The notes under the pieces: generated by a model
The model's database searches: none
Seen by the model: the letters and a program-made list of their open reading frames with translations, nothing else
Told to the model about the DNA's origin: nothing
Program-made: the position numbers and the translations under genes
In this document: positions 49,992 through 64,000 of the stretch, in pieces
How the letters are laid out: every line of letters starts with the position of its first letter
Position numbering within the stretch: the stretch's first letter is position 1
From: an uncultured Gammaproteobacteria bacterium
GTDB taxonomy: Bacteria; Patescibacteriota; Patescibacteriia; SBBC01; CAIJZX01
Direction: 5' to 3'
NCBI GenBank assembly: GCA_964518425.1
Contig: CAZFGG010000003.1
Span: 9,634-73,633 of the forward strand
DNA length: 64,000 nucleotides

Positions 49992-51412
49992 AGGGACGGG
50001 GCGGGTGGTGGAGGGGGCATGGTCGGAGGCGGAGGCGGAATCGTTGGCGAGACAGGCGTCGTTACCGTTGGAGGGACCGTCATATCGAGGTTGTGTTGAA
50101 CGAGTACTTGCGCTCGTTGAAGTTCATTTAATTCCCGCTGCAACTGATCAGATTTTTTTCGAGCGTCTTTCTCTAACGTCGCTAAGTCATGCTGGAATGT
50201 CGAGCGAATCCGGAGACGACGCACGATGAGGATCGTCAAGGCAATCAAGAGCAAGACCCCGAGTCCGAGAACGACAGCGTTAGCAACTGCTGGATTTCGC
50301 AATAATGGTACCCGGGCGAAGAACGATAGTCCAGCGGCCGTGACCGTTAATGTGACGCTGCCATCGGTCGCGTTGCCGGCCCGGTCGAAAGCCCGAACTT
50401 GCCATGCATACTTGCCAGCGGCCAAGGGGTTGATGATGTAGGGACTGGATGTTTCAACAAACAGCGTGTTGCCGGAACCGTCGCCACCGAGCGTCACTTG
50501 TCGAACTTCATAGTGATCGAGTCCCGAAGCTGCGTCCGTCGTTAAAAAACGTAAGGTTGTCGTATCTTGAGTGGTGACAATTGATTGGTCGATTTTCGGC
50601 GTGAACCCCGCGGGGGGCGTCGTGTCGATCTGGACCGGGTAGGACGTCGTTCCGCCCCAACTGACCGTCAGGGCCCGGATGTGAAAATACCAAACGCCAT
50701 CACTCGTAGCCTTGACGCTCGCTGAGGTTTGGGTCGTATCCACTTTTTCGTCGGGTGTCGACTTGGCCGTTTGATCGAAACTGTAGCTGTAGCCAAGTGC
50801 GCTGTCGATCGGTTCCCAGGCGAGTTGGACCTGGGAATTGCTATACCACTCATTACTATCCGGATGGGTCGGACTAGTCACGACCGGGCCAGCAGGGGGA
50901 GGGGTTTTGAGAGTAAGTTGAGCGGTCCCACTGCTGGTTAAGATGTTTGTTCCTTTGCCGTCGTTCCGTAAAACTTGTGAGGTCGGAGCAAACTTTATGG
51001 TGGCCGGGCCGGGTGATTTAACGCGAAACGTAACCGTGCTAATAACGCCGCCACTCGTTTTAATACCAGGGTTTGGCAGGCCTCCTTGAAAATGAATCGT
51101 GCCGTCGGTGTTAGAATACGACGGGGCAGTGACCCAAATCGAGATAAACGACGTACTGGCGACCGGATTAACGACTTGGAGTTTATCAGCCGGAAAAAGA
51201 ATATCAGCTTGGACCGCGTTGATGGCTTCCCCGCCAGTATCAACCAGGAACGACACGTCAATCGTACTACCGACTTCGTAGGTACCAGCTAGCGGTGAGA
51301 TGCTCAAGCTGGCGCCAGAGGCATACACAATTCGCCCCGTCGCGAGAAGTAGGATCAAGCTGAGCCCGACCGTCAGTGACCGACGCCCTGAGCCTGTGAT
51401 CTGTCGGACCAT
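49988..51412 (-). CDS. Cohesin-domain surface protein with C-terminal TM and Pro-rich tail (paralog 2)
   Basis: Same architecture (GASLSISPLAGTYEVGSTIDVSFLVDTGGEAINAVQADILF...; GVWYFHIRALTVSWGG; C-terminal TM plus a coiled-coil and PPPPPTMPPPPP). Start set to MVRQITG (51412) to avoid overlapping paralog 3. Confidence 0.6.
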   Translation of the reverse strand: MVRQITGSGRRSLTVGLSLILLLATGRIVYASGASLSISPLAGTYEVGSTIDVSFLVDTGGEAINAVQADILFPADKLQVVNPVASTSFISIWVTAPSYSNTDGTIHFQGGLPNPGIKTSGGVISTVTFRVKSPGPATIKFAPTSQVLRNDGKGTNILTSSGTAQLTLKTPPPAGPVVTSPTHPDSNEWYSNSQVQLAWEPIDSALGYSYSFDQTAKSTPDEKVDTTQTSASVKATSDGVWYFHIRALTVSWGGTTSYPVQIDTTPPAGFTPKIDQSIVTTQDTTTLRFLTTDAASGLDHYEVRQVTLGGDGSGNTLFVETSSPYIINPLAAGKYAWQVRAFDRAGNATDGSVTLTVTAAGLSFFARVPLLRNPAVANAVVLGLGVLLLIALTILIVRRLRIRSTFQHDLATLEKDARKKSDQLQRELNELQRAQVLVQHNLDMTVPPTVTTPVSPTIPPPPPTMPPPPPAPSL

Positions 51413-51434
51413 AGGCGGTGAGTATACCACAAGC

Positions 51435-52556
51435 TTAGCGCCGACGTTGGCGTCGCGTGAAGAACAAAACTCCGCCGACAACGATGACGACAGCGGCTGT
51501 CGCAAGGCTATCGCGGACGAGAACCGAGTGTCCAGTCAGGTGAATGGTTGCCGCACGTTCATTACCAGCCTGATCGCGAACGATAATCATCGCGTCATGG
51601 CCGCGCCACTCCGGCTTGATGACGAGCGGACTGGTCACTATTCCTTTGTCCACGTTGCCGACGCGAAGGTGGGCATCAGCTACCCCCGAGGTGGTGTCCG
51701 TGGTCGTCCAACTCATCGTCGGTTGCCCGTTCGTTTGGCTCGACGGGAGCAGCAGGATAGAAAATGGTGATGGCGGTTCGCGATCGAGGAGGAACCTGTA
51801 CTGACTCACGCGAGACCAAACACCATCCCCAACTTCACTTTTGATGGTGAAAAAATACACGCCGTCGCTCAAGCCATCGTAGTCAACCGAACCTGGCATT
51901 GGTTCGGCGGTGTCATCGGGGACATCATCAATTTTTGAAGATAACCGGTAGCTATAGATCGTTCCGGATGGAATCGTCCAACGAACATGAATCGTGTCAA
52001 TGGCCGTCCATCGATCAGGTGTCGGGATCGTCGAGGCATCGAGCGGAATACTCTGGACCAGCGTGTCGGCCAGCATCACATCGAGAGGTGAGCTCGTCAG
52101 ATCTAAGCGAGTTCCCTGACCATCATTCAGGTAGGCTGATGATATTTTTTGTTGGAGTGAGATCTGCCCGATGCCCGAGGCGAGACTGCGGAAGACCAGC
52201 GTCGCGACGGGAGCATCAATGGCGACTAATCCATGTGGCCGCCCAGCAACGAGACTAACCGTGCCGCTGTGGTTGTCCCATCCTGGTTCTTCCGGCCAGA
52301 GTGTCCAAATCGACTGCTGCCGCTCAACGCGCAGAAGTTCAAATTGAGTGCTGCTGAAGGCCAGGTGAAGATCGACCGCATTAATGATTCGGCCAAGACT
52401 ATCCATCCGGACCTCAACGCTGACGGTATCACCGGCCCGAACAAGGCCCGCCGGTCCAACGAGATGAACGTTCGGACTGGAGGCAGCCATGGCCGGCCGA
52501 ATGAATGCCAACCCAGCCACGGCGATGACGATGATGGCGTATCTTATCCGGTCCAT
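51435..52556 (-). CDS. Cohesin-domain surface protein with C-terminal TM (paralog 3)
   Basis: VHLVGPAGLVRAGDTVSVEVRMDSLGRIINAVDLHLAF...; GVYFFTIKSEVGDGVW; C-terminal TM plus RRQRRR. Confidence 0.55.
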   Translation of the reverse strand: MDRIRYAIIVIAVAGLAFIRPAMAASSPNVHLVGPAGLVRAGDTVSVEVRMDSLGRIINAVDLHLAFSSTQFELLRVERQQSIWTLWPEEPGWDNHSGTVSLVAGRPHGLVAIDAPVATLVFRSLASGIGQISLQQKISSAYLNDGQGTRLDLTSSPLDVMLADTLVQSIPLDASTIPTPDRWTAIDTIHVRWTIPSGTIYSYRLSSKIDDVPDDTAEPMPGSVDYDGLSDGVYFFTIKSEVGDGVWSRVSQYRFLLDREPPSPFSILLLPSSQTNGQPTMSWTTTDTTSGVADAHLRVGNVDKGIVTSPLVIKPEWRGHDAMIIVRDQAGNERAATIHLTGHSVLVRDSLATAAVVIVVGGVLFFTRRQRRR

Positions 52557-53863
52557 TGGAAGAGCATAATACTAAAGTCTGTCAGGTCAACGCGACCATC
52601 GTGATTGATGTCCGCCCGGCTGTTACTCGGATTCGTCTGGCGCCAGAAGAACAAGAGGATACTAAAATCGACGATGTTGACCTGGCCATCACCATTCAGG
52701 TCGGCCGGCGGCTTGCCATCGAACAAGCCCAGTGGGTTCACCGCGAAGGTCACGACCGCGCTCGCTTCGGAGGCAACACTACCACCGAGCACGGCCCGGG
52801 CCTGAGCTGTGTGTGTTCCAACACCTAAGGCTGTTGTATCAACTGATTTTGACCAGCGTCCTTGATCATCTGGATTGAGCGTAAATGACGTCGCTTGGAC
52901 TGAGTGGACGGTAAGTGTCAGGGCGCTGTCTGGAGTCGTCGTACCGGAAATAAGGACCGGCGTACCAATCTTAACGGTCCTGGTATTAATCGCGATCGAG
53001 GGACCAAGAAAGACGCCGCTAATGAAGGTCGTGGTGCTCGGGCTCAACGTTAAAGCAAAGGTGACTGGGCTCAGGACATTCTGCTGGTCATCGGTACCAT
53101 CGACTTCATAGACGACGGCTCCGGTCGGCTGATCGGAGAGGGTAATCGAAAACCTTGCTTGCGCATCAGCCGGCGTCGTGTTCACTAATTGACCATTACG
53201 GTTGATGGTCACCGTCGCGGTCGGAGCGGCATACCCGCTGAAGATGACGGTTGGGTTGGTCGGACCGGGCGGGGTGGTTTCTACCACTTCCGCTGACACC
53301 ACAACTTGGTCACTGCTGAGAACCGATAAAAAAAACTGGAAAGTATCAATTGGTGTTACGCCATTGGTGGTCGTCAGGTTAACAATCAGTCCCTGGGCCG
53401 GTGGCGGCGTTCCCAATTTAGCAATTGACCCGTCCGTCACGGACCAGCCATAGAGGGTTCCGGCGACCAAGGGACCGACCCCACTGACCGTGATGGTGTC
53501 AACGCTGCTCGAGCCGCTGCCTTGAACACAGTCGGCAGTGAGTGTTCCCGGTAGCGGCGTCGCGTTTTCTGTCACCCCCTCCGGACTACTGATGCCGCTG
53601 ACGCTCAAATCTACACCGGCCGTCCGGCACCACTGGCCGTCATCGCCGTCGGGAAAATCAAAAACAACGGTATTTGAAGAACCCGGGAGAGAAGTAGCTG
53701 GATTAAAAAAAACTTGATGAACTTCGCCCCCAGCCAAGTTGGCCTGTTGTCGCATCAAGTAATCCCGAACTTGGCTCAAACTACCAGCGTGAGCTCCGTG
53801 GGCGGAGAAGGCAAAAAACGTGATGACGACGAGACAGGCTAATCGCCAACGTTCCAGCCTCAT
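52544..53863 (-). CDS. Secreted dockerin-containing protein
   Basis: C-terminal tandem dockerin Ca-binding repeats DLNGDGQVNIVDFSILLFFW and DINHDGRVDLTDFSIMLFQW. The N-terminal about 150 aa (DDGQWCRTAGVDLSVSGI) is homologous to the N-termini of 54897..55979 and 56018..57118. Confidence 0.75.
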   Translation of the reverse strand: MRLERWRLACLVVITFFAFSAHGAHAGSLSQVRDYLMRQQANLAGGEVHQVFFNPATSLPGSSNTVVFDFPDGDDGQWCRTAGVDLSVSGISSPEGVTENATPLPGTLTADCVQGSGSSSVDTITVSGVGPLVAGTLYGWSVTDGSIAKLGTPPPAQGLIVNLTTTNGVTPIDTFQFFLSVLSSDQVVVSAEVVETTPPGPTNPTVIFSGYAAPTATVTINRNGQLVNTTPADAQARFSITLSDQPTGAVVYEVDGTDDQQNVLSPVTFALTLSPSTTTFISGVFLGPSIAINTRTVKIGTPVLISGTTTPDSALTLTVHSVQATSFTLNPDDQGRWSKSVDTTALGVGTHTAQARAVLGGSVASEASAVVTFAVNPLGLFDGKPPADLNGDGQVNIVDFSILLFFWRQTNPSNSRADINHDGRVDLTDFSIMLFQWTG

Positions 53864-53869
53864 GGAGAA

Positions 53870-54859
53870 TTACTTCTTCGGGGATCCGCTGGCCCGGCGG
53901 ATAATCATGGCGTTATACTGCCGGAGGCCAATGACCAGGGCATAGATGACGGCCACAATCACGAGAAGAATAACCAGCAATAATTGCCATGGGAAAATGG
54001 TGAATCGGACGGTTCCAACGAGTGGTTGGTTGGTGCTACCGTAGGTCAAATTCAAGCTAGCGGTATACGTCCCTAAGGCGAAATTGTGCCACTCGGCTCC
54101 AACTTCGTGGAAGAACCCTCCGCGTCCCTGGTCAACGCTACTTTTCGCCCAGGCGACGTCAAAGTGCCGAGACGAGTTTGGCAAAATAGCTCCGCGGCTA
54201 GAATTGAAGACGAGCGAGGCTGTCTGCCCGCCAAACATGTTATGAATAACGACTGTTCCTTCTGGACGGATATGAACGTTGCCAGTGTTGTTAATAACCG
54301 TTTCAATCGTTACCGGCGGACGCGTAAACGATCGGGTTCCACTTTTGACGACAAGGCTTTCAACCTTGGCCGATTCATTCAGCTGTCCTTGGACAGTCAG
54401 AATGATCAACGTTCCGATTTTTGAAGCAATCAAGACTGTTCCGCCCTGCCCGGCGTTCGGTTGAGTGCCGAAGAACAAGGCCGCGTAGTGACCGCCCGGA
54501 GCGGCATCTTTCGGAACGGTGATCGTGACCGGGACAGTCACGTTCTCGTTTGGCGCTAAGGCGTATTGTGTCGGCTTGACCGAAATCCATGAAGCCAAGT
54601 CTTCTTGTTTTCCTTGCGGATCAAACTTCGGCGTTCCATCTTCGTCAGCCGCGGTAAAGTTCGACGTTGACGTAAACAATGTCACCGGGTCAGACGACTC
54701 ATTGTAGAGCTTGATTGACGTGGTCAATGACTCACCGGGTTGGGCACCAAATTCAAGACTCGGCGGAACAAGTGTAATCGCTCGGGCGGCTGGAGAAAAG
54801 AATATTGCCCCGATGATGATAATAACTGAGGCCAGTGCTCGAGTAATGTTTTTGTTCAT
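53870..54859 (-). CDS. DUF916/DUF3324-like cell-surface protein (signal peptide, two Ig-like domains, C-terminal TM plus basic tail)
   Basis: 329 aa; architecture identical to the WxL-cluster CscA-type proteins of Firmicutes; C-terminus WQLLLVILLVIVAVIYALVIGL-RQYNAMIIRRASGSPKK. Confidence 0.45.
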   Translation of the reverse strand: MNKNITRALASVIIIIGAIFFSPAARAITLVPPSLEFGAQPGESLTTSIKLYNESSDPVTLFTSTSNFTAADEDGTPKFDPQGKQEDLASWISVKPTQYALAPNENVTVPVTITVPKDAAPGGHYAALFFGTQPNAGQGGTVLIASKIGTLIILTVQGQLNESAKVESLVVKSGTRSFTRPPVTIETVINNTGNVHIRPEGTVVIHNMFGGQTASLVFNSSRGAILPNSSRHFDVAWAKSSVDQGRGGFFHEVGAEWHNFALGTYTASLNLTYGSTNQPLVGTVRFTIFPWQLLLVILLVIVAVIYALVIGLRQYNAMIIRRASGSPKK

Positions 54860-54896
54860 GGTTGTGTCCCCTCCAGGATTAATACTGTTGGTTCTT

Positions 54897-55979
54897 TTAA
54901 AACTTCCCCGTCGTCACTAAGGTACTGGTGCTCGTGTAACTACCAGCTTTCGTTGTGCCAGAGACACCAGCGCCAAAGCATAGGGTCGTTGTCTGCGCAC
55001 TGACTGGAGCGCTGGCAGAGGCAAAGCTTTGGAAAGATGTTGAGAGTGCCGTCAGGTTGGTCGTGCTGGTAGTGGTAGCACAGGATGTTGGGTTCCACTG
55101 GGCGATCGTGTTGCCGGATTGTGAAGACGAAGCGCCATAGCCTTCGTTACCGATGGCTAACGTGCTACCAGGGACGTTCTGGATTGTGTTGCTACCGGAA
55201 GTAAGCGTCGCGTTGTAGTTCACTAAGGAGGCATAGCCGTTGGCACCATTCGTCGTGACTTGGCTGGTAATACCGGCTTGGTTGATGTGACCGGTATCGA
55301 GGGTACCGAGTGAAGCGGTGTTGGCACTCAGGACAACCGTCAAGGTTGGATTGACCGTGGCTGACACGGCGACTTGGTCGTTCGAAATAATTGAGAGAGC
55401 GACGGTTCCCGAATCAACATCGGCCGAGGCTCCCGTTTGGGTTTTGACGGTGACCTGAATGTCGTTCGCTGCGGCTGAGGTCGTTCCCAGTAAAGCGGTT
55501 GGCGATCCGGCTTGGGCAATGCGGACACCATATTTTGTCGTGCCGGACAGTGCCGCGACGTTGCTAATGGTAATCGTATCTGGCGTTTGGCTACAGGCGG
55601 TGCTGAAGCTGCTCGAGGAGGTCAAGGCTGAAGCTGATTCTGTCGCACCGGTTGGGTTGGTAATACCGGTCGCGACTAAGTCTGAGCCGGTCGTTCGGCA
55701 CCACTTGGTATTGTGGTTAGCGCCAGAGGGGAAGATGATCACGACTTTGCCGCCCGAAGAAACCGCGCTGACCGTTGTGAAAAAGACTTCCAGTTGCAAT
55801 CCGCTGGCGAGGTCCGCGATTTGGCGACTGAGGTAAACACGAGGAGTTGAGAGAGTACCAACGGCAAAAGCATTGTTGATCGGATACGAACAAACAAGAA
55901 GGCTCAGTACGCCAATCAATGCTGTCCAACGTGACAAACGGATTCTCTGGCTCTTAGTGATTATAGGGAGGTTCTTCAT
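54897..55979 (-). CDS. Secreted surface protein, paralog A, with the conserved C-terminal module ending ...LVTTGKF
   Basis: Signal peptide; N-terminal domain shared with the dockerin protein; C-terminal about 150 aa nearly identical to paralog B and homologous to the C-terminus of the giant protein 57205..63972. Confidence 0.55.
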   Translation of the reverse strand: MKNLPIITKSQRIRLSRWTALIGVLSLLVCSYPINNAFAVGTLSTPRVYLSRQIADLASGLQLEVFFTTVSAVSSGGKVVIIFPSGANHNTKWCRTTGSDLVATGITNPTGATESASALTSSSSFSTACSQTPDTITISNVAALSGTTKYGVRIAQAGSPTALLGTTSAAANDIQVTVKTQTGASADVDSGTVALSIISNDQVAVSATVNPTLTVVLSANTASLGTLDTGHINQAGITSQVTTNGANGYASLVNYNATLTSGSNTIQNVPGSTLAIGNEGYGASSSQSGNTIAQWNPTSCATTTSTTNLTALSTSFQSFASASAPVSAQTTTLCFGAGVSGTTKAGSYTSTSTLVTTGKF

Positions 55980-56017
55980 ATCGTCCAGGCTAGAATGAAA
56001 AGTAGTTAGAGGGTGTA

Positions 56018-57118
56018 TTAAAACTTCCCCGTTGTCACTAAGGTACTGGTGCTCGTGTAACTACCGGCTTTGGTTGTGCCGGAGACACCCGCGCCAAAGC
56101 ACAGGGTGGTCGTTTGGGCGCTCACCGGAGCACTGGCGGAAGCAAATGATTTGAAGCTCGTGGAGAGGGCCGTCAGGTTGGTGGTACTGGTAGTCGTAGA
56201 ACATGCCGTCGGGTTCCACTGAGCAATCGTATTGCCAGATTGTGAAGATGCCGCACCATAACCTTCGTTACCAATGGCTAAGGTGCTACCAGGCACATCT
56301 TGGATGGTGTTACTTCCAGACGTGAGGGTAGCATTGTAGTTCACTAGTGACGCATAGCCATTGGCACCATTCGTCGTGACTTGGCTGGTAATACCGGCTT
56401 GGTTGATGTGACCGGTATCGAGGGTACCGAGTGAAGCGGTGTTGGCACTCAGGACAACCGTCAAGGTTGGATTGACCGTGGCTGACACGGCGACTTGGTC
56501 GTTGGTGATGAGAGACATGGCCAAGGTTCCACTATCGATATCTACCGATGAGTTGTTTGTCGTCGTCACTAAGACCTGAATATCGTTACCGGCCGAGGCG
56601 GCCGTCCCGAGTAGGGCGGTCGGTGATCCTGCTTGAGCGATTTGAACACCATACTTGGTTGTCGCTGAAAGGGTCGTGAAGTTGGCCACGATAATCTTGT
56701 CAAAGCTACTGCCACCAGATCCTTGGGTACAGCTCGCGGTGACTGAACCGCCGGGTAGGGTCGTGGCACTTTCCGTCGCGCCGGTTGGGTTAGCAATGCC
56801 GGTCACCACTAAATCGGTTCCAGCCGTCCGACACCATTTGCCATCGTCGGCATCGGGAAACTGTAGGGTGATTTTCGCGCTCGCACCACCCGTCACTGAA
56901 CTGACCGTCGTGAAGAATACTTGGTGGGTAATGCCGCTGGCGACATCCGCTTGCTGCCGGCTCAAGTAGTCTCGAGGAGTGCTCAGGACCCCGACCGCCA
57001 GAGCGTTACGAATAGGCAGGCTAGAAAACGCCAGTCCAAGAATTGTGAGAACAGCAAAAAAACGGGCGAAAATGGCTCGCGTTGTTTTATTTGGTCCAGA
57101 CCGAAATTTCATGGTCAT
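56018..57118 (-). CDS. Secreted surface protein, paralog B (same family)
   Basis: Over 120 bp of 100% DNA identity with paralog A (55261-55380 versus 56381-56500), embedded in about 85-90% identity elsewhere. Confidence 0.55.
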   Translation of the reverse strand: MTMKFRSGPNKTTRAIFARFFAVLTILGLAFSSLPIRNALAVGVLSTPRDYLSRQQADVASGITHQVFFTTVSSVTGGASAKITLQFPDADDGKWCRTAGTDLVVTGIANPTGATESATTLPGGSVTASCTQGSGGSSFDKIIVANFTTLSATTKYGVQIAQAGSPTALLGTAASAGNDIQVLVTTTNNSSVDIDSGTLAMSLITNDQVAVSATVNPTLTVVLSANTASLGTLDTGHINQAGITSQVTTNGANGYASLVNYNATLTSGSNTIQDVPGSTLAIGNEGYGAASSQSGNTIAQWNPTACSTTTSTTNLTALSTSFKSFASASAPVSAQTTTLCFGAGVSGTTKAGSYTSTSTLVTTGKF

Positions 57119-57204
57119 AATTGGAAAATAGTCTTGTTTTTCTTTGTTTTTACTTATTTCTGTCTATAGTATAGCACTTCCTGACAAAATGGTCAATCCA
57201 CAGG

Positions 57205-60200
57205 CTAGAACCGACCAGTTGTCACAACCGTCAAATTGCTTGTGTAGGCCCCAGGGACTTGCGTTCCTGATAGAGCGGTCAGAAGGCAGAGCGTCGTAGC
57301 CTGTCCAGAAACCGTGCCCGATGACGAAGCGAAGCTCTTAGCAGAGGTAGACAGCGGCGTGGCGCTTGAGGCACTGGCCGTCGTGGCGCAGCTTGTCGGG
57401 TTCCACTGGGCAATCGTGTTGCCGGCCTGAGAAGTTGAGGCCCCGAACCCGGACGTACCAGCCGACATGTTGTTCGGCGGTGATCCCGTCGTATCGGCAA
57501 TTGTGTTGGCACCGCTCTGGAGGGTGTGGTCGTAGCTTACAACCGAGACGTATCCCCCGCTCCCCGTGGTCGTGACGGTGCTAGAAATACTTCCTTGGTA
57601 GACTTGGCCAGTGGTTAGCGTTCCAAACGCTACTGAGTTGCCGGATAAACTGACCGTCAGCTTCGCAAAGGTCCAACAATCATTATCTCCTTCGTTCTTA
57701 TTTGTGCCATCGGAAGCATCAATCACTCCACCCGTACTACTACAAGCTTCGGAATCTTTGACGCTGGCAAAGGTAATCGTTCTTGAACCACTGCCAGCGT
57801 TGATATGCCACTGTGAACCTCCGGCTGAACTGTGCAGAGTGACAAAGTGTCCGGATGTTCCACTGAAGTTGATGGCGGTTAACGTATAGGTTGAACCGGC
57901 GTTGAACCGGAGCTTGACGTCGTTGGTCGCGGCGGTAAACGTATTGTTCGTCGTCAGTCCGCTAGCCAGAATAACTGACGGCGACGAATCGGGATCAGAA
58001 CCGGAACTGTTGGTGATGGTTAAATTGTAGAACGTCGGCGACCCGCTGACAGTTTGTTGCGACGAGCCATTGAGGGTTAACGTATTATTCGTTGTCGGGG
58101 TAAACGTACCATTCGAGGCATCAAAGTTTCCGCTGACTGTCCAAGCTCCCGTACCGGTCGTGATCGCCGGAGTAGCTGATCCCCCTTTGGTATAGGTCAG
58201 GTTTCCGGTCAGGTTGACCACCGGGTTATTCGATCCAGAGAGCGTCAGTATCTGACTTTGGCTAGCACCAGTAATAATTTTTAGATTAGCGCTAAGGTTG
58301 TGCGTCCCGGCTGACATTGTCACGCTTCTGACGTTGGCCGTATTACCGTAGATTTCTACGTCACCACCATAGGTTCGGTTTGACATCGTCACGTTTCCGC
58401 TGACCGTATCAAAGCGGACAATACTATTAACCGTGCCGGTCGTGGGGAAAGCGGTGCCCGTGTTTTGATAGTTCAGGGTACCCGTATTGCCGCCAATGGT
58501 CCCGCTCAGGCTCAGCGTCGTGCCGCTCGTCCCAGACAAGGTGAGCGTCCGGCTAGCGTTGAGTGTTAGCGTCTTCGTGTTGTTGACGGTGAGCGTTGTG
58601 CCGACCGTCAGGTCAGATGTCGCTAAACTGATGGTGCCACCGATCGTCAGACTACTTAACGTCGCTGAACCACCAGTCAGGTTTTTACTTGTCCCGTCCA
58701 TGGTCAACGTACTCGTCCCAGCGGTAACCGTACCATTCGTCAGGTCGACGTTGCCGCTCATTGTCCATGTCCCACTCCCCATGGTCATTGTCGGCGTGCC
58801 GCTCGAGGGTTTACTAAAGGCGAAGTCCCCGGTGAGATTGACCGTTGGGTTATTCGTTGCTCCGGCTAACGTCACGTTCTGAGAATTGTTCGCGGTAATT
58901 GTTAATGTACCCGAGAGTGTGTGCGTACTGGATAACATGGTCACCGTGCGGGCTGACGACCCGGAATTGTTGTAGATTTCTACATTACCACCATAGGTTC
59001 GATTGCTCATCGTTTGATTGCCGCCGGTGGCGTCGAACCGTAGGGGCGAAGAAATTGTTCCGGTCGTCGGGAAAGCGGTTGTGCTTTGATAAACGAGCGT
59101 TCCGCTACCGCTGATAGTCCCGTTTAAGTTTAAGGTTGAACCAGAATGTGTCAGTGTTCGGCTGGCTCCCAGTGATAGTGTGTCACCGGTCGCAACCGTG
59201 ACCGTGCCGGAGGCAGTAAGATCACTACCACTAAGCGTGACGGTGCCCGTGCTTTCTGGATCAATGTTCAAGCCGCTGAGCGTAGCGTTGCCGCCAGTGA
59301 TCGTGGCCGCAGTGCCTTCCATCAGGACTGTCGATGATCCCGCGGTAATCGTCCCGCCGGTCATATCAAGATTACCGGCAATAATATGCGTCGCGTTGGC
59401 TAGAGTGATCGTGCCCGACAGCGTTAAGTTGTATAAAGCATTACTGTCCGTCGTCAGTGTCTTGCTCGAGCCGTTCATGACCAGCGTCGGCGTACCGGCC
59501 GAAACGTATCCAACGCGCATGACCGGTGGAACCGTACCTTCACTCGAATCAAAGAATTGATCAACGTCATTAATATAATTCGTGGCCACGGTAATATCCC
59601 CAGCAATACGCGATTTGACGTCACTCGTCGCCGTAGCACCGAGTTGATAATACTTGCGACCGGTCGACGTCCAATCTGTGGCCGTAGCATAGGTCTGTGA
59701 AACACCTTGTCGGGCATACATCCCTCCGGGAGCGCCTGAACTACAGCTGCTGGCATCGATACTATCGACGTTGGTCCGGCCGATAAGAACTTGCCCGCTG
59801 GCGGCAGTCGAAACATTCACCATGAGCTGCGACGAGGTAATGGTCGATGAACCGAGTCCGGAAAAGGCCGTCGATAGGCTAAAGCGCATAGCTGACTTAT
59901 AGGTATCTTCGTCGTAGGGGTAGTTACTGACGCAATCCCCACCCGTGACATGCGCAACTTCTAAGCTTGCGCCGCTCGCGCCCTGACATGAGTAGATGGT
60001 CGATTGAAGATCACAGCCCAGTCCAGCATCGTCAAAGTGCATGTCTTGAAAAACTGTCCGATCCCAGGCGGGGTTGATCACTTTTACCTGCGGCGCATAG
60101 AATCCACTAGTGAAATCAACGTTGCCGCTAACCGTCCACGTTCCACTGCCAGCTACCAGCACTTCTTCCCCACTGCCCGTACCGGTGTAGTCGAGATCGC

Positions 60201-63200
60201 CAGTGATATTGATCGTCGGATTTTGGGCACTACCGTCAACCGTGACGTCAGCCGCGCCATTGGCATTGAGATAGAAATGGCTGGAGAAGGTGAGCGTCTG
60301 CGAACCAGCCGTCCCTAGGGTAACTGTTCGTAGCGTCGAGGCTGAGTTGTTGTAAAACTCGACTTGGCCGCCATACGTTCGGGCCGAGGCGGTTTGATTG
60401 TTGTTCGTAGCATCAAATCGGAGATGCGAACTGATCGTGCCCGAGGTGGGAAACGTCGTACTGCTTTGATAGACATACGTTCCGGAACCGGTGATTGTCC
60501 CGTTGAGCGTGAGCGTGGCGCCTGAATGGGTTAAGGTTCGGTTGACATTAATCGTGAGTGTTTTTGGAGAGTCGATTTGCAGTGTCCCCGACACCGTCAA
60601 ATCGGTATTTTGCAACGTCGTATCGTCAGAAATCGTCAGGGCGCTCAGCGTTTTTCCTCCGCCATCAATTGTTTTTGTCGACCCAGTCATAACGACTGTT
60701 GACGTACCAGCCGTCAACCCAGTCGAGCCAATGTTGAGATTGCCAGCCAAAGTATGGGTCGCGCTGGCTAAAGTAATCGTTCCACCGCCAGAGGTCGTGA
60801 AATTGTTTAATGTCTTTCCGTTCGACGTTAGCGTACCCGTGCCGTTCATGGCGAGCGTGCCAGAGTTATGGTTGAACGTGGTGACGTTTGTCAGGTCAAA
60901 GTTACCGCCGACAGTCCAGGTGTTCGAACCCATCGACAAGGTGATCGCGCCGTTGGCCGTTGAAGCGGTTACGTTGCCGGTAACATTGACCGCCGGGTTA
61001 TTCGTATTTCCAGCGATGATCATCGCCCCGCTACCGGTCGTTTGCATATCGAAATATCCAGAGAGCGTGTGCGTGCCATTCCCCAGTGTGAAGGTTCGCG
61101 ATGAACTCGAGGTGTTCAGAACTTCGATTGAACCATAATCCGTTCGAACCGCCGACGTCATGGCATTCGTGACCATGTCGTACCGGAGGATCAGAACGGC
61201 GGCGAGGGTGCCAGTCGTCGGGAAGGCTGTCGATGAACGGTAAATTAATTTTCCCGGCCCGTTGATCGTCCCATTCAGCGTCAAGGCACTGGCTCCAGTA
61301 TTCGAAAGCGTCAGTGTCCGACCGCTGTTCAGGGTGATGCTCTTCGTATTATCTACTTGCAATGTATTTGACGCCGTCAGATCGGTATTTTGTAAAGTTT
61401 CAGAACCGGAAATGGTCAAGTTGTACAAGGTTTGCCCACCTCCATCGATCGTCTTACTTGAACCGGTCATGGCGATCGTTGATGTGCCGGCGGTAATCGT
61501 CGCGCTCGAACCAAGCGTCAGGTTTCCGGCCAGCGTGTGCGTCGCGCTGGCTAAAGTAATAGCTCCTGATCCTGAGGTCGTGACGTTATTGAGGGTCTTA
61601 CCGTTCGAGGTTAGTGTTCCAGTTCCATTGAGTGCGAGAGTTCCCGAGTTATGGTTCAAGGTCGTAACGTTTGTCAGGTCAAAGTTGCCACCAACGGTCC
61701 ACGTATTCGAACCCATCGACAAGGTAATTGCGCCGCTGGCCGTCGAAGCTGTCACATTAGTCGTGACGTTGACTGCTGGATTATTGGTATCCGTCGCCAC
61801 GATCATCGCACCGCTGCCGGTCGTTTGCATGTCGAAGTATCCAGAGAGCGTGTGCGTCCCGTTACCGATCGTGAGCGTTCGGGACGAGCTGGAAGAGTTG
61901 AATGCCTCAATCGAACCATAGTCGGTCCGCACAGCCGACGTCATAGCGTTCGTGACCATGTCGTACCGAAGAATAAGGACTGCCGCTAAAGTCCCGGTCG
62001 TTGGGAAGGCTGTTGATGAACGGTAGATCAGGCGACCAGGACCGTTGATAGTGCCATTTAAGGTCAGCGCGCTCGCGCCAGTGTTCGACAGGGTGAGCGT
62101 CCGGCTGCTGTTGAGCGTAATACTATTCGTATTGTCTACCTGAAGGGTGCTCGAGACAGTTAAATCAGTGTTTTGTAAAGTCTCCGAACCTGAAATGGTT
62201 AGATTATTGAGGGTCAATCCTCCGCCATCAATCGTTTTCGAGGAACCGTTCATGACAACCGTCGATGTTCCGGCGGTTAATCCAACCGAGCCTAAGGTCA
62301 GGTTGCCAGTAATCGTATGCGTCGCATTGGCCAAGGTAACAGTTCCTATACCGGAGGTGGTGAAGTTGCCTAGGGTGCTGCTCCCCGTTGTGAGGGTTCC
62401 TGTACCGTTCATTACTAGCGTTCCTCCGCTTGAGGTAAACGTTCCTGAGTTTGTGAAGCTGCCACCAACGGTTAGTGAATTTGCGTCTGATGCGACGAAA
62501 ATGGCCGAGGCTGCGATGGTCATCGTGCTGGTCACAGTGATGGTTGGATCATTCGTTACGTTGGTAAACGTTAGGGCGTTCGTCCCGTTGCCGACGGTCA
62601 GGCTACCTTGGACGCCGAACGCGCCAGACTGGCCCGTATACGTTACCGTCCCAGCTGGCGTCAGGTTCAAGGTCCCGTAGTTTTGGGTCGAAACGTTTTG
62701 CGCGCTGGTTTGCTTATAGGTCGTCGTGCTTGTTGAGCCAAAGGTGTAGGTCGTGAAACCGGTCGGGAACGTTTGTGTTGTCCCGTCCATTTGGAAGGTG
62801 GCCAGGTTCTTCACTTCAAATGTTTTGCCGCTGGCGCCGGTGATATTGAGACTCCCGTTCTTAAACAGGACGCTCGACGTTGAACCGTCGCCGACCGTTA
62901 GGTTTCCGGTTAAGGTGGTAGCCGTCGGAGCTGCGTCTGGGGAAGCACCGCTGGCATTCGTATTCAGAATTTGCAGGTCATTGTACTGCGCTCCCGCGTT
63001 ACCCCAGGTGAAGTAGACCGTTTGGGCGGCTGAACCATTATAAACCCATTTACAGCCGGATGAACCAGGCGTCGAGGTGGCGCTGCCGGGATTGGTGATC
63101 GATCCGGAAATTTTTACTGTGGCCGCACCGCCGGAACAGTCAATCACTTGGTCAGCCACTGTCGCGTTCGAGGCGAAGGACAGACTGGTTGAGGCGGTCA

Positions 63201-63972
63201 TGGTTAATGTCCCGGTCGTCAAGATAATTTTATTAATGAAGTTGCCGGTATTTCCGCCGCTGAAGGTGATCGTTCCCGACACTTCGGCGGTCCCGGCGTT
63301 TATCAACCAACTACTAATCACTTGGTTATTGACCGGTTGGGTCAGGGCCACACTGCCAGAAATATTGAGGTCAATCCCGCTCGCTTGGGTAAAGGTGGTG
63401 GCCGTGTTGTTTGGGTTCCAGGTCAAGTTTCCACCGCCGATGGTGGCGTTGGTATTGAGTGTATAAGAAGAACCATTACCAAGGACCATGCCATAGAACG
63501 GCGTCAAGGATGACCCCCCGATGGTTTTGCTTGAGCCAATGAAGACAATGGTTTGGTTGCCGCCAGTAAATGGTGTCGTACTATTGTTCGTCCAGTTACC
63601 GGCGATCGTGAACCCAGCCACCATATTTAATGTCACCCCGGAATCAATGAAGAAATTCGGGTAGGTATAGGATCCCGGACGACCGTTGGCCGTGAAATGG
63701 AAATTTGACGTTGAATCGAAGGTACAGGTGCAGCCAGGAATAAAGTCTCCGCCGCTATTGACCGTTGCCGCGCCGCTCGTCGTAATTTTCGTATTGCCAC
63801 TCGTCCCAGCAAAGGTAAAGGCACCAACCGAGGTTATCGTTCCCGTACTGGCTTTCAGCTCAGCGGCGGTGACGGTACCGCCCGTGATTGAAATCGTCCC
63901 GGCCGTCAACGTGCAGGTCAGCATGTCGACTGTCGTTTTGCCGGTCTGGGCGGCAGTTGAGCTGCTGGTCAT
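57205..63972 (-). CDS. Giant (at least 2255 aa) Thr/Ser/Gly/Asn-rich repetitive adhesin-like protein carrying the shared C-terminal ...VTTGRF module; may extend beyond the window end
   Basis: Tandem about 260-aa repeats (NGTGTLTSNGKTLNN..TSG.G.ITLASATHTLAGNL...), beta-helix-like composition; C-terminal about 150 aa homologous to paralogs A and B. Confidence 0.6.
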   Translation of the reverse strand: MTSSSTAAQTGKTTVDMLTCTLTAGTISITGGTVTAAELKASTGTITSVGAFTFAGTSGNTKITTSGAATVNSGGDFIPGCTCTFDSTSNFHFTANGRPGSYTYPNFFIDSGVTLNMVAGFTIAGNWTNNSTTPFTGGNQTIVFIGSSKTIGGSSLTPFYGMVLGNGSSYTLNTNATIGGGNLTWNPNNTATTFTQASGIDLNISGSVALTQPVNNQVISSWLINAGTAEVSGTITFSGGNTGNFINKIILTTGTLTMTASTSLSFASNATVADQVIDCSGGAATVKISGSITNPGSATSTPGSSGCKWVYNGSAAQTVYFTWGNAGAQYNDLQILNTNASGASPDAAPTATTLTGNLTVGDGSTSSVLFKNGSLNITGASGKTFEVKNLATFQMDGTTQTFPTGFTTYTFGSTSTTTYKQTSAQNVSTQNYGTLNLTPAGTVTYTGQSGAFGVQGSLTVGNGTNALTFTNVTNDPTITVTSTMTIAASAIFVASDANSLTVGGSFTNSGTFTSSGGTLVMNGTGTLTTGSSTLGNFTTSGIGTVTLANATHTITGNLTLGSVGLTAGTSTVVMNGSSKTIDGGGLTLNNLTISGSETLQNTDLTVSSTLQVDNTNSITLNSSRTLTLSNTGASALTLNGTINGPGRLIYRSSTAFPTTGTLAAVLILRYDMVTNAMTSAVRTDYGSIEAFNSSSSSRTLTIGNGTHTLSGYFDMQTTGSGAMIVATDTNNPAVNVTTNVTASTASGAITLSMGSNTWTVGGNFDLTNVTTLNHNSGTLALNGTGTLTSNGKTLNNVTTSGSGAITLASATHTLAGNLTLGSSATITAGTSTIAMTGSSKTIDGGGQTLYNLTISGSETLQNTDLTASNTLQVDNTKSITLNSGRTLTLSNTGASALTLNGTINGPGKLIYRSSTAFPTTGTLAAVLILRYDMVTNAMTSAVRTDYGSIEVLNTSSSSRTFTLGNGTHTLSGYFDMQTTGSGAMIIAGNTNNPAVNVTGNVTASTANGAITLSMGSNTWTVGGNFDLTNVTTFNHNSGTLAMNGTGTLTSNGKTLNNFTTSGGGTITLASATHTLAGNLNIGSTGLTAGTSTVVMTGSTKTIDGGGKTLSALTISDDTTLQNTDLTVSGTLQIDSPKTLTINVNRTLTHSGATLTLNGTITGSGTYVYQSSTTFPTSGTISSHLRFDATNNNQTASARTYGGQVEFYNNSASTLRTVTLGTAGSQTLTFSSHFYLNANGAADVTVDGSAQNPTINITGDLDYTGTGSGEEVLVAGSGTWTVSGNVDFTSGFYAPQVKVINPAWDRTVFQDMHFDDAGLGCDLQSTIYSCQGASGASLEVAHVTGGDCVSNYPYDEDTYKSAMRFSLSTAFSGLGSSTITSSQLMVNVSTAASGQVLIGRTNVDSIDASSCSSGAPGGMYARQGVSQTYATATDWTSTGRKYYQLGATATSDVKSRIAGDITVATNYINDVDQFFDSSEGTVPPVMRVGYVSAGTPTLVMNGSSKTLTTDSNALYNLTLSGTITLANATHIIAGNLDMTGGTITAGSSTVLMEGTAATITGGNATLSGLNIDPESTGTVTLSGSDLTASGTVTVATGDTLSLGASRTLTHSGSTLNLNGTISGSGTLVYQSTTAFPTTGTISSPLRFDATGGNQTMSNRTYGGNVEIYNNSGSSARTVTMLSSTHTLSGTLTITANNSQNVTLAGATNNPTVNLTGDFAFSKPSSGTPTMTMGSGTWTMSGNVDLTNGTVTAGTSTLTMDGTSKNLTGGSATLSSLTIGGTISLATSDLTVGTTLTVNNTKTLTLNASRTLTLSGTSGTTLSLSGTIGGNTGTLNYQNTGTAFPTTGTVNSIVRFDTVSGNVTMSNRTYGGDVEIYGNTANVRSVTMSAGTHNLSANLKIITGASQSQILTLSGSNNPVVNLTGNLTYTKGGSATPAITTGTGAWTVSGNFDASNGTFTPTTNNTLTLNGSSQQTVSGSPTFYNLTITNSSGSDPDSSPSVILASGLTTNNTFTAATNDVKLRFNAGSTYTLTAINFSGTSGHFVTLHSSAGGSQWHINAGSGSRTITFASVKDSEACSSTGGVIDASDGTNKNEGDNDCWTFAKLTVSLSGNSVAFGTLTTGQVYQGSISSTVTTTGSGGYVSVVSYDHTLQSGANTIADTTGSPPNNMSAGTSGFGASTSQAGNTIAQWNPTSCATTASASSATPLSTSAKSFASSSGTVSGQATTLCLLTALSGTQVPGAYTSNLTVVTTGRF
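58400..62700. repeat. Tandem about 770-790-bp intragenic repeats (about 5 units; the two central units are almost identical) within the giant adhesin gene
   Basis: Reverse-frame ORFs at 60491..61138 and 61262..61921 are near-identical copies offset by 771 bp; further copies at about 58.5, 59.2 and 62.1 kb. Confidence 0.7.
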
Positions 63973-64000
63973 GGCAAAACCATTGGTGACAGTTAACGTG

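Follow-up and report, generated by a model that had tools for sequence, protein, structure and literature searches.

The window, by which we mean the whole 64,000-nucleotide stretch of DNA that was analysed, carries on its minus strand four co-oriented open reading frames that, in the ORF list, encode proteins of 329, 360 and 366 aa and a giant protein. A preliminary description of the same DNA had recognised these genes, and their positions hold (53870-54859, 54897-55979, 56018-57118, and from 57205 past 63999), but the locus does not end where that description had placed its end. The gene block is larger and extends downstream to 47626, taking in a dockerin subunit and cohesin membrane proteins that had been missed. 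We think that the whole block probably encodes a thin adhesive fibre, a Pam-type pilus, of an ultra-small Patescibacteria/CPR bacterium. Its features are listed here in the direction of the genes.

57205..64000, minus strand: putative giant tip adhesin gene, partial (ORF without upstream stop)
61633-62418, minus strand: giant repeat u1
60850-61638, minus strand: giant repeat u2
60106-60855, minus strand: giant repeat u3
59485-60105, minus strand: non-repeat insert in the giant
58729-59484, minus strand: giant repeat u4
58078-58806, minus strand: giant repeat u5
57208..57663, minus strand: predicted acceptor domain of the giant, Pam pilin CTD type (alignment with the pilin CTDs)
56018..57118, minus strand: pilin 1, 366 aa (AF2 model and NCBIfam NF058581)
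56474..56500, minus strand: linker (putative donor) strand DQVAVSATV of pilin 1 (coordinates verified)
56361..56503, minus strand: 143-nt conversion tract, pilin 1 copy (100% identity to 55240-55382)
54897..55979, minus strand: pilin 2, 360 aa, paralogue of pilin 1 with the same architecture
55353..55379, minus strand: linker (putative donor) strand DQVAVSATV of pilin 2
55240..55382, minus strand: partner of the 143-nt tract, pilin 2 copy
53870..54859, minus strand: chaperone-like membrane-anchored protein, 329 aa, putative PamC/PamD counterpart
52544..53863, minus strand: dockerin-bearing "donor-only" subunit, 439 aa (Pfam Dockerin_1, Big_6)
51435..52556, minus strand: cohesin-like type-I membrane protein 1, 373 aa (paralogy, cohesin-domain HMM)
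49988..51505, minus strand: cohesin type-I membrane protein 2 (505 aa in the ORF list; Pfam Cohesin)
48312..49991, minus strand: cohesin-like type-I membrane protein 3, 559 aa (paralogy to proteins 1 and 2)
47626..48315, minus strand: GT2 glycosyltransferase, 229 aa (Pfam Glycos_transf_2, E=1e-30)
46744..47451, minus strand: signal peptidase I (S26) (Pfam Peptidase_S26, E=4e-42)

The GT2 gene is the final gene of the tightly packed block, is found at the same position in the related loci L001, L003, L008, L012 and L013, and possibly encodes a pilin-glycosylation enzyme. The signal peptidase I gene lies downstream of tRNA-Val in a synteny that is conserved in related loci; a functional tie between it and the pilus is uncertain.

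The shared C-terminal module

The giant and both pilins end in a homologous 152-aa module in which both cysteines are conserved, the module of the giant being 56% identical to those of the pilins (local phmmer E ~1e-38), in agreement with the preliminary description, which had noted a shared C-terminal module of about 150 aa with two cysteines. The module profile found 237 cluster representatives among 1.84 billion proteins, in each of which the module ends at the last residue, a result far beyond chance. For both pilins, the module matches the NCBIfam model NF058581 (CPR_Pam_pilin_C) at E=2e-8 over model positions 3-148 of 148, with a score of 34 bits that lies below the curated cut-off of 55; no NCBIfam score reaches its curated threshold, and the values for the second model, at most 72 bits where 240 are required, fall short as well. 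The same model matches 64 of the 89 homologues (best 2e-13). The module profile also retrieves proteins of ~220-260 aa, and the PamT model recognises all 10 of those tested, nine at 1e-9 to 1e-20 and one outlier at 6e-4. The Pam pilus of Candidatus Mycosynbacter amalyticus was described in 2026 and consists of the pilins PamA and PamB, the chaperones PamC and PamD, the tip PamT and the anchor PamR (bioRxiv 10.64898/2026.03.03.709456; NF058581, NF058579).

By sequence homology, the module is the predicted acceptor domain of Pam pilins and not a new anchoring domain, and its role is most likely filament polymerisation by donor-strand exchange rather than wall anchoring. The earlier proposal of a new surface anchoring or assembly domain thus survives in its assembly part and loses its claim to novelty, and the analogy that it drew with pilin C-terminal domains has turned out to be apt. 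A different reading is that the module is a sorting signal for a dedicated enzyme (LPXTG/sortase-like or PEP-CTERM-like) or an SLH-like wall-binding domain. Its strictly C-terminal position in all 237 representatives and the signal peptidase I gene in conserved synteny would fit such a role, but the AF2 model shows a confidently folded beta domain of ~150 aa (pLDDT 94-98), and the module lacks an LPXTG motif, a hydrophobic tail and a basic stop-transfer end. Neither Pfam nor NCBIfam gave an SLH or sortase-signal match, and the block holds no sortase or exosortase gene. We regard this reading as barely credible. A match of the module to an LPXTG or SLH sorting domain, which the preliminary description had named beforehand as counting against its own view, was likewise looked for and not found.

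Pilins and the linker strand

The two pilins, of 360 and 366 aa, are 73% identical in protein and are the paralogues of about 360 aa that had been reported before. In both, a conserved linker strand (DQVAVSATV) joins an N-terminal sandwich to the acceptor domain. In the AF2 model (pLDDT 92.7), 9-10 strands in aa 46-204 and a second beta domain in aa 219-364 contain one Cys pair each (C96/C130 and C306/C340), and the linker between them, aa 205-218, is unpaired in the monomer; two beta domains, Cys pairs and linker all agree with the published description of PamA and PamB. The hydrophobic residues of the linker alternate (V.V.A.V), and 42 of 59 pilin ORFs carry the motif at the corresponding place, compared with 12 of 1840 ORFs in the background set.

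All 154 pilin homologues are from CPR bacteria. Where the record titles of relatives are informative, they name Kerfeldbacteria, Parcubacteria, Moraniibacteriota, Dojkabacteria (WS6), Microgenomates, 'Saccharibacteria' and MAGs of the Patescibacteria group, and we place the source bacterium in the Patescibacteria (CPR), near Ca. Kerfeldbacteria. A few relatives' records are labelled Gammaproteobacteria or Bdellovibrionales, which we take to be mislabelled bins.

The two pilin genes also share identical DNA, in one perfect tract of 143 nt (56361-56503 = 55240-55382) and in a second tract of 32 nt near their 3' ends. Downstream of the longer tract, 48% of 113 codons differ, 49 of them only synonymously, and the chance of zero change over 48 codons is ~3e-14. 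The suggestion of gene conversion made from the identical stretches is confirmed at the sequence level for the 143-nt tract, which falls exactly on the linker and the opening strands of the predicted acceptor domain, a position that favours the donor-acceptor polarity proposed below.

The giant repeat protein

The reading frame of the giant stays open up to the window edge, which gives a protein of 2264 aa or more whose N-terminus is missing; the 5' end of the gene lies beyond the window, as would any secretion signal. The protein is rich in Thr, Ser, Gly and Asn and is built of degenerate repeats of ~261 aa (783 nt). The best pair of repeats reaches 85% identity at the protein level and 75% at the DNA level, where its longest stretch free of mismatches measures 20 nt, and the remaining copies share 43-53% protein identity (53, 49 and 43%). 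The repeats had been described as nearly identical, which they are not, and they thus give no grounds for slipped-strand or phase variation. Nor is there a basis for assembly collapse, which had been raised in advance as an objection.

The giant has no match in Pfam or NCBIfam. Homologous giants of up to 4380 aa occupy the same position in relatives, and those in the related loci all end in the acceptor module, none with the linker motif beside it. In the window, a segment with a Cys, NEGDNDCWTFAK, stands ahead of the giant's module, where the pilins have the DQVxVSATV linker. With an acceptor domain and no linker strand, the giant would be the tip subunit. We see it as a variant in which the acceptor domain is fused to a giant adhesin, not as an orthologue of PamT.

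The chaperone-like protein

In the 329-aa protein, a signal peptide is followed by two beta-sandwich (Ig-like) domains in a PapD-like two-domain fold, a C-terminal TM segment at aa 291-324 and a basic tail (AF2 model, pLDDT 92.4; hydropathy scan). The protein matches Pfam WxLIP_PGBD (DUF916) at E=1e-4, with 22.6 bits against a cut-off of 27.3, as do 50 of 98 homologues, also below threshold; DUF3324 gave no match in it. In copies of the PDB without 25PZ, 25QA or PamA/PamB coordinates, WxLIP was the top sequence-profile match (E=0.023) and enterococcal WxLIP the best structural match, in fold and topology. Its description as a DUF916-like TM protein was therefore reasonable. In almost all of the 53 related loci the gene lies beside a pilin gene; where it does not, the contig is short or truncated. 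Judged by its modelled structure, the protein is a putative membrane-anchored PapD-like chaperone that resembles WxLIP.

The likeness to WxLIP also favours a view along the lines of the preliminary description, in which the locus encodes a WxL-cluster-like, non-filamentous complex whose module holds a small and a large protein non-covalently on the wall, where the DUF916-like protein stabilises them. The layout of WxL clusters in Lactobacillales and Listeria is parallel, with small and large secreted proteins that have one C-terminal domain in common and a two-Ig membrane protein, WxLIP (DUF916-DUF3324-TM); an AlphaFold2 analysis has predicted that a WxLIP strand inserts into the WxL domain (PMC10599100). 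We nevertheless consider this view improbable, because the C-terminal module has no detectable relation to the WxL domain: the W-x-L motif, of which a WxL domain has two, is absent from the three module-bearing proteins, Pfam WxL (PF13731) has no match in the 89 homologues at E<=0.1, and an hhalign alignment of the module with WxL gave a probability of 0.1% (E 0.48). The models that do match are those of the Pam pilin and PamT, and the relatives PamA and PamB of Mycosynbacter have been observed experimentally as filaments. The linker strand is moreover kept in a subunit without the module, which makes little sense unless the strand is donated. WxL proteins are described as peptidoglycan-bound and not filamentous, and WxL clusters lack dockerin and cohesin.

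The dockerin subunit and the cohesin proteins

The 439-aa protein that retains the linker begins with a signal peptide and an N-terminal domain of the pilin type. The linker, here DQVVVSAEV (53285-53311), comes next, then a spacer rich in Pro, a pair of Ig domains and, at the end, a type-I dockerin (52553-52708); the protein lacks an acceptor domain. Pfam Dockerin_1 (PF00404) matches at E=1.8e-8, with 34.9 bits against a cut-off of 22.9, and Big_6 matches as well; the dockerin has duplicated Ca-binding repeats and reads DLNGDGQVNIVD...DINHDGRVDLTD. The three cohesin proteins are paralogous (phmmer E 1e-24 to 1e-29). Protein 1 has a signal peptide and a C-terminal TM segment and matches a cohesin-domain HMM at E=6e-43; protein 2 matches Pfam Cohesin (PF00963) at E=1.8e-6, with 28.6 bits against a cut-off of 24.1, and has a TM segment at aa 410-428 and a Pro-rich cytoplasmic tail; protein 3 combines an OmpL47-type barrel with a TM helix and a charged tail. 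Proteins 1 and 3 are below Pfam significance on their own and are paralogous to protein 2 over the region of its cohesin module. Cohesin matches were found in 8 of 22 family members. The true start of protein 2 may be further downstream than listed.

These features suggest a dockerin protein that serves as filament terminator and anchor adaptor, and from gene adjacency and co-occurrence we infer that its dockerin binds the cohesin modules of the three membrane proteins. It is also possible, though unlikely, that the locus encodes a Pam-type pilus while the dockerin and cohesin proteins form a separate surface system, with the pilus anchored or terminated otherwise, or released. The Kerfeldbacteria locus L011 has giant, pilin and chaperone genes and no dockerin or cohesin genes downstream, and Mycosynbacter uses the TM protein PamR and has pili that detach easily. 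CPR genomes often encode dockerins and cohesins, and the true partner could therefore lie elsewhere in the genome. Against a separate system stands the N-terminal domain of the dockerin protein, which is 37% identical to the pilins (E=3e-36) and is followed by the pilin linker motif, present in 9 of 12 dockerin-subunit orthologues; short orthologues that lack the N-terminal domain keep the linker, their mature N-terminus starting directly with the motif after the signal peptide. Furthermore, among 54 sequences (the 53 related loci and the window), dockerin and cohesin genes occur together in 12, are both absent from 42 and never occur one without the other. The sequences with both have one dockerin gene followed by 2-3 cohesin-TM genes, and the dockerin gene and its neighbours overlap or lie 6 nt apart.

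Discussion

Our results support a model in which the locus probably encodes an usher-less, Sec-dependent Pam-type pilus assembled by donor-strand exchange. It seems to be a variant of the recently described pilus, with a giant adhesin at the tip and apparently plugged into the membrane through a cohesin-dockerin pair. The linker insertion in trans, the capping by the chaperone and the cohesin-dockerin pairing are steps that we infer from sequence. The membrane-anchored chaperone would cap the open C-terminal domain of each secreted subunit, and the giant adhesin, an acceptor only, would start the fibre as its tip. The linker DQVAVSATV of each incoming pilin would then displace the chaperone and fill the groove of the preceding subunit, so that the fibre would grow at its base. 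The dockerin subunit, a donor only, would fill the last groove and end growth, because it has no groove of its own. Its Ca-binding dockerin would plug into cohesin modules on these type-I membrane proteins, three in number, holding the fibre on the cell in place of the transmembrane PamR of Mycosynbacter, and the GT2 may glycosylate the Ser/Thr-rich subunits. The likely function of such a fibre is to reach and bind a host cell.

The Pam pilus shares with this locus a PapD-like chaperone with a C-terminal TM helix, a tip subunit with only an acceptor domain, and an usher-less, CPR-restricted system encoded in a single operon. There are also differences. Pam is known from Saccharimonadia or Microgenomatia, whereas the lineage here is Kerfeldbacteria-like and the scores are below the family cut-offs; its tip is a PamT of ~240 aa, whereas here the acceptor domain is attached to a giant repeat adhesin that exceeds 2264 aa; it has two chaperones rather than one; and its neighbours are ATP synthase and CorB rather than HisRS, signal peptidase and GT2. 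PamR, in which an N-terminal strand precedes two FnIII domains and a TM helix (bioRxiv 10.64898/2026.03.03.709456), is a TM terminator, in contrast to the donor-only dockerin subunit and three cohesin membrane proteins found here. No PamR-type terminator was found in the block, where the 439-aa dockerin protein lacks a TM helix, and the function of PamR may be split between the dockerin subunit and the cohesin-TM proteins.

The same logic of an acceptor-only tip, a donor-plus-acceptor shaft and a donor-only terminator like PapH is found in the chaperone-usher pili of Gram-negative bacteria (Pap, Fim, CFA/I and archaic Csu), which also have a donor strand with alternating hydrophobic residues and subunits with a conserved extreme C-terminus. 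Unlike those pili, the present system does without an usher or an outer membrane (the block yielded no usher-like ORF, and CPR bacteria lack an outer membrane), its chaperone is tethered to the membrane, its putative donor strand is a linker between two domains and not an N-terminal extension, and there is no detectable sequence similarity. TasA fibres, archaeal threads and bundling pili, which use chaperone-free donor-strand complementation, have neither a dedicated PapD-like chaperone nor defined tip, shaft and terminator subunits. The proposed anchor resembles that of cellulosomes, in which the dockerin of a scaffoldin binds anchoring cohesin proteins on the cell surface and where an extracellular structural protein likewise carries a C-terminal type-I dockerin with two Ca-binding repeats and the cohesin modules are on cell-bound proteins encoded next to it; here, however, the cargo would be a pilus and not enzymes, and the cohesins are anchored by a single TM helix and not by SLH or sortase.

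We know of no pilus class for which anchoring through cohesin and dockerin has been described. Since the nearest solved relative of the chaperone is WxLIP, WxL clusters, long enigmatic, are suggested as the same kind of machine. Taken together, the two ideas, that a cohesin-dockerin plug tethers a donor-strand pilus and that WxL clusters work alike, form a tentative proposal that we hold to be doubtful. If it is true, a donor-only subunit would cap the base of the filament and dock on dedicated cohesin proteins, the plug tethering the filament. The WxL clusters of lactobacilli, enterococci and Listeria would in that case have a membrane-anchored chaperone that complements subunits and hands them over, and usher-less chaperone systems would be an ancient invention of monoderms.

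Gene order of the locus

From 47.6 kb to the right edge of the window, every gene in the ORF call lies on the minus strand, and the genes are close-set, with gaps of 6–86 nt or overlaps. Of the preliminary description of this region, the four co-oriented genes are all real, but they form just the upstream half of a larger block that reaches 47626.

Genes of the block, in transcription order
57205 to beyond 63999, minus strand: giant ORF, at least 2264 aa (first)
56018–57118, minus strand: pilin paralogue 1, 366 aa (second)
54897–55979, minus strand: pilin paralogue 2, 360 aa (third)
53870–54859, minus strand: chaperone-like protein, 329 aa (fourth)
52544–53863, minus strand: dockerin subunit, 439 aa (fifth)
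51435–52556, minus strand: cohesin membrane protein 1, 373 aa (sixth)
49988–51505, minus strand: cohesin membrane protein 2, 505 aa (seventh)
48312–49991, minus strand: cohesin membrane protein 3, 559 aa (eighth)
47626–48315, minus strand: GT2 glycosyltransferase, 229 aa (ninth)

Past the GT2 gene lie tRNA-Val, the signal peptidase I gene and HisRS. A promoter and terminator scan gave a result not above shuffled expectation. Its one suggestive feature is a terminator-like hairpin immediately 3′ of the giant stop codon (57168–57217, minus strand), overlapped by a promoter-like sequence with an upstream TG (TTGACC-17-TATACT) that lies 50 nt ahead of the first pilin gene; such a site behind the giant gene might give the pilins stronger transcription of their own.

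The shared C-terminal module and the Pam pilus

A module of 152 aa closes the two paralogues as well as the giant; over it the giant shares 56% identity with the pilins, and both cysteines and the VTTG(K/R)F end are kept in all three proteins, confirming the homology first noticed by eye. From 1.84 billion proteins, a profile of the module retrieved 237 cluster representatives; the alignment reached the last residue every time, so that the module is C-terminal in all of these relatives. Its carriers fall into size classes of about 210–260 aa, 330–375 aa and 450–960 aa, with giants of up to 2786 aa.

Pfam gave no match in the pilins or the giant. The NCBIfam model NF058581 (CPR_Pam_pilin_C, Pam pilus system pilin subunit) aligns with the whole module in both paralogues at E = 2e-8 and 34 bits, below its curated cut-off of 55 bits, and it matches 64 of 89 homologues with a best E of 2e-13. 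In addition, all 10 tested proteins of 217–257 aa from the module-profile matches fit both NF058581 and the PamT equivalog model NF058579 (E = 1e-9 to 1e-20 in nine and 6e-4 in one), which ties the window family transitively to the Pam system. The Pam pilus became known in 2026 through a preprint on a single cultured parasite of the Saccharimonadia, Ca. Mycosynbacter amalyticus, whose filaments were shown by cryo-EM to consist of two pilins, PamA and PamB, with the linker strand of each inserted into the C-terminal domain of its neighbor (10.64898/2026.03.03.709456). The same operon encodes the PapD-like chaperones PamC and PamD, which carry a TM helix at the C-terminus, together with PamT as acceptor-only tip and PamR as TM terminator (10.64898/2026.03.03.709456). 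We conclude that the locus is probably a Pam-type donor-strand pilus operon, and of the anchoring and assembly roles first suggested for the module, the sub-cut-off NF058581 match together with the PamT-model link favors assembly.

Readings of the module as an LPXTG, SLH or other sorting signal were rejected, as none was found in Pfam, NCBIfam or a motif search. Searching the pilin and a pilin profile against PDB sequences, a set without PamA or PamB entries, returned nothing relevant, and a Foldseek search with the pilin model found just generic two-Ig matches in the PDB (TM about 0.2).

Pilins and the linker strand

The two pilins are 73% identical in protein sequence. In the AF2 model of the 366-aa pilin (pLDDT 92.7), 9–10 strands lie within aa 46–204 and a second beta domain spans aa 219–364, each domain having one Cys pair; between them, aa 205–218 (TNDQVAVSATVNPT) are unpaired yet confidently placed. 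Hydrophobic residues alternate in the linker motif (V.V.A.V), as in the donor strands of chaperone-usher pili; the strand would insert in trans into a neighboring subunit. Counts from a loose motif pattern by ORF class place the motif largely in pilins, at one relative position, and in dockerin subunits.

Occurrence of the linker motif by ORF class
Pilins: 42/59, at one relative position
Dockerin subunits: 9/12
Cohesin proteins: 0/27
Chaperones: 1/64
Giants, adjoining the module: 0/12
Background ORFs: 12/1840

Two of the 12 giants match the pattern, at positions unrelated to the module. Within loci, the motif was too conserved for covariation of the pilin linker with the dockerin-subunit strand to be informative.

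The suggestion that the paralogues share identical DNA through gene conversion held up. A perfect tract of 143 nt (56361–56503 = 55240–55382) is accompanied by an identical tract of 32 nt, whereas in the 113 codons downstream of the longer tract 48% differ, 49 of the 54 differences being synonymous. Against this divergence, 48 codons without any difference are a strong outlier (P about 3e-14), and recent gene conversion is therefore the best reading. The tract coincides precisely with the linker and the opening strands of the acceptor domain; this placement may mean that conversion maintains the interchangeability of the two pilins at their interface. Tandem pilin duplicates with equal domain-search scores also occur in two related CPR loci (L003, 9974–11062 and 11160–12251; L049, 9986–11113 and 11242–12369), which suggests that recent duplication or homogenization of pilin pairs recurs in the family, like the conversion tract in the window.

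A probable WxLIP-like chaperone without a WxL module

In the AF2 model of the 329-aa protein (pLDDT 92.4), a signal peptide is followed by two beta-sandwich domains and, toward the C-terminus, a long helix (aa 291–324), an arrangement that matches the architecture originally described. Its resemblance to DUF916 proteins was likewise upheld: with a profile of 98 homologues, EfmWxLIP1 was the top match among all PDB sequences (E = 0.023), and 50 of the 98 match Pfam WxLIP_PGBD (DUF916), albeit sub-threshold. In the structural ranking, WxLIP was followed by EcpB (11.9), CfaA (11.8), CupB2 (11.5), FimC (11.3), CsuC (11.2), SafB (10.8) and PapD (9.8). Taken together, the matches to DUF916/WxLIP and to chaperones of chaperone-usher systems indicate that the protein is a membrane-tethered PapD-like chaperone, the counterpart of PamC/PamD, which would cap subunits.

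The idea of a WxL-type module did not survive. No W-x-L motif was found in the module and PF13731 (WxL) did not match it; hhalign of 139 modules against 20 aligned WxL sequences, taken from WxL clusters on plasmids and from a homology search that collected 17 homologues, returned a probability of 0.1%, so that at this sensitivity, and with a thin WxL profile, homology was rejected. The small WxL proteins of two enterococcal plasmid clusters (L054, 372–1178; L055, 5177–5785) have a beta-strand-like segment after the signal peptide (AKVTILEND, ANIKVLDND) and a Pro/Asp-rich spacer before the WxL domain. This layout is like the "strand plus Pro-rich spacer" N-terminus of short dockerin subunits, and by analogy the segment could be an N-terminal donor strand.

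The giant protein

The giant ORF has no in-frame stop up to the window edge, and its N-terminus is therefore missing. Its internal repeats, with a unit of about 261 aa, are not nearly identical as had been stated: the best pair shares 85% protein and 75% DNA identity, with a longest exact match of 20 nt, and the remaining copies are 43–53% identical. Tandem Repeats Finder reported nothing in the gene, the 783-nt period exceeding its limit, and these values come from BLAST. The repeats have diverged too far for collapse during assembly or variation by slippage to be expected, which speaks against an assembly artifact and also leads us to reject the proposed length or phase variation. Inside the array, aa 1299–1505 (59485–60105, minus strand) form a Cys-containing, non-repeat insert of about 207 aa (VKVINPAWDRTVFQDMHFDDAGLGCDLQ...) that matched no family and is a candidate ligand-binding domain.

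Subunit polarity and a proposed anchor

The 439-aa protein has a pilin-like N-terminal domain (37% identical to the pilins, E = 3e-36) and retains the linker as DQVVVSAEV, but its acceptor domain is replaced by a Pro-rich spacer, a pair of Ig domains and, at the C-terminus, a type-I dockerin (aa 381–439; Pfam E = 1.8e-8). Its peptide SSDQVVVSAEVVE is the segment proposed to meet the pilin. Among 12 sequences with a dockerin-subunit gene, seven encode a short protein of 287–304 aa that lacks the N-terminal domain, as does an eighth of 351 aa (L017). In the short subunits, the linker motif is the mature N-terminus, right behind the signal-peptide cleavage site (for example, AFAQ/LSDQVIVTATVPSSPP and VLAQ/VSQQVVITATVPEKPP). 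The distribution of domains and linker thus defines three subunit classes: the giant is acceptor only, the pilins are donor and acceptor, and the dockerin protein is donor only, a division that corresponds to tip, shaft and terminator in donor-strand pili.

The three cohesin proteins are paralogues (E = 1e-24 to 1e-63), each of which combines a signal peptide and an N-terminal cohesin-like module with Ig/OmpL47-type domains, a single TM helix and a cytoplasmic tail that is either charged or Pro-rich. The Pfam Cohesin model exceeds its gathering score for the 505-aa protein and has matches in 8 of the 22 family members. The tail of the 505-aa protein ends in a proline-rich run, PPTVTTPVSPTIPPPPPTMPPPPPAPSL (49988–50080, minus strand), and that of the 559-aa paralogue in an Arg/Ser-rich stretch instead; the two tails may have different binding partners in the cytoplasm.

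All ORFs of 53 related loci and the window were searched with HMMs built for the cohesin module and for the dockerin. Exactly one dockerin gene, followed directly by 2–3 cohesin-TM genes, was present in 12 of the 54 sequences; the other 42 had neither kind, and none had one kind alone. On the basis of domain content and this co-occurrence, we propose a dockerin–cohesin anchor, a mechanism whose chances we consider evenly balanced. The donor-only subunit would cap the base of the fiber, and its dockerin would plug the fiber into the membrane cohesins, taking over the role given to PamR in Mycosynbacter. The locus would then be a Pam variant with a giant tip adhesin and a cohesin–dockerin anchoring module.

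Distribution among Patescibacteria

The pilin and chaperone homologues are all from MAGs of Patescibacteria; of those with names, the closest belong to Ca. Kerfeldbacteria and Parcubacteria-group bacteria and more distant ones to Dojkabacteria (WS6), Microgenomates and bins labeled Saccharibacteria. In a close clade the full gene order is kept: giant, 1–2 pilins, 1–2 chaperones, dockerin subunit, 2–3 cohesin proteins, then GT2, signal peptidase and HisRS. An 823-kb contig (L001) is an example, with a giant of 4380 aa. A Kerfeldbacteria locus (L011) has giant, pilin and chaperone genes without the dockerin/cohesin module. In four more distant CPR loci, a PamT-like acceptor-only protein of 234–258 aa lies upstream of the pilin in place of the giant adhesin (L014, 5499–6272; L015, 9114–9815; L018, 9139–9849; L022, 9107–9820), with a chaperone gene on either side in L014 and L015. 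The alternation of giant and small PamT-like proteins at this position argues that the tip is modular across lineages.

Other genes in the window

A second large surface protein (38456–44152, minus strand; 1898 aa) combines Big_5 Ig repeats with a T4SS_pilin domain at its N-terminus (PF18895, E = 4e-8). Downstream of it lie a 172-aa protein with bacterial TSP3 (Ca-binding) repeats (37935–38453) and then a 356-aa protein of no family (36853–37923); the three may belong to a type IV secretion or conjugation-like apparatus of CPR bacteria. An isoleucyl-type class I tRNA synthetase (841–4329, minus strand; 1162 aa) contains an unusual insertion, a complete histidine-phosphatase domain (His_Phos_1, E = 9e-33; aa 505–656) between the halves of the catalytic domain. 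The window also encodes a class II ribonucleotide reductase of 1167 aa with a TSCPD domain (27441–30944, minus strand) and a DUF2079 membrane protein (31750–33318, minus strand), kin of PMT_2 glycosyltransferases, which could be relevant to surface glycosylation.

Discussion

Our results extend the Pam system, whose pilins are mainly found in Saccharimonadia and Microgenomatia (10.64898/2026.03.03.709456), to a different CPR lineage, in which the genes are still labeled hypothetical because annotation models score below their cut-offs. The preprint makes no mention of dockerins, cohesins, adhesins or WxL proteins (10.64898/2026.03.03.709456), and our literature search found no other account of donor-strand pili in CPR and none of a link between WxLIP and chaperones. 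It leaves as a question how the fiber terminates and is held on a cell without an outer membrane (10.64898/2026.03.03.709456); the dockerin subunit and cohesin membrane proteins offer a testable answer. The structural tie between the chaperone and WxLIP likewise allows a concrete hypothesis to be framed for the WxL clusters seen in Gram-positive bacteria, which still lack an explanation. Finally, the modular tip can take the form of a very large adhesin, which exceeds 2264 aa in the window and reaches 4380 aa in a relative; a protein of this kind readily suggests itself as a candidate determinant of host recognition in an episymbiont.
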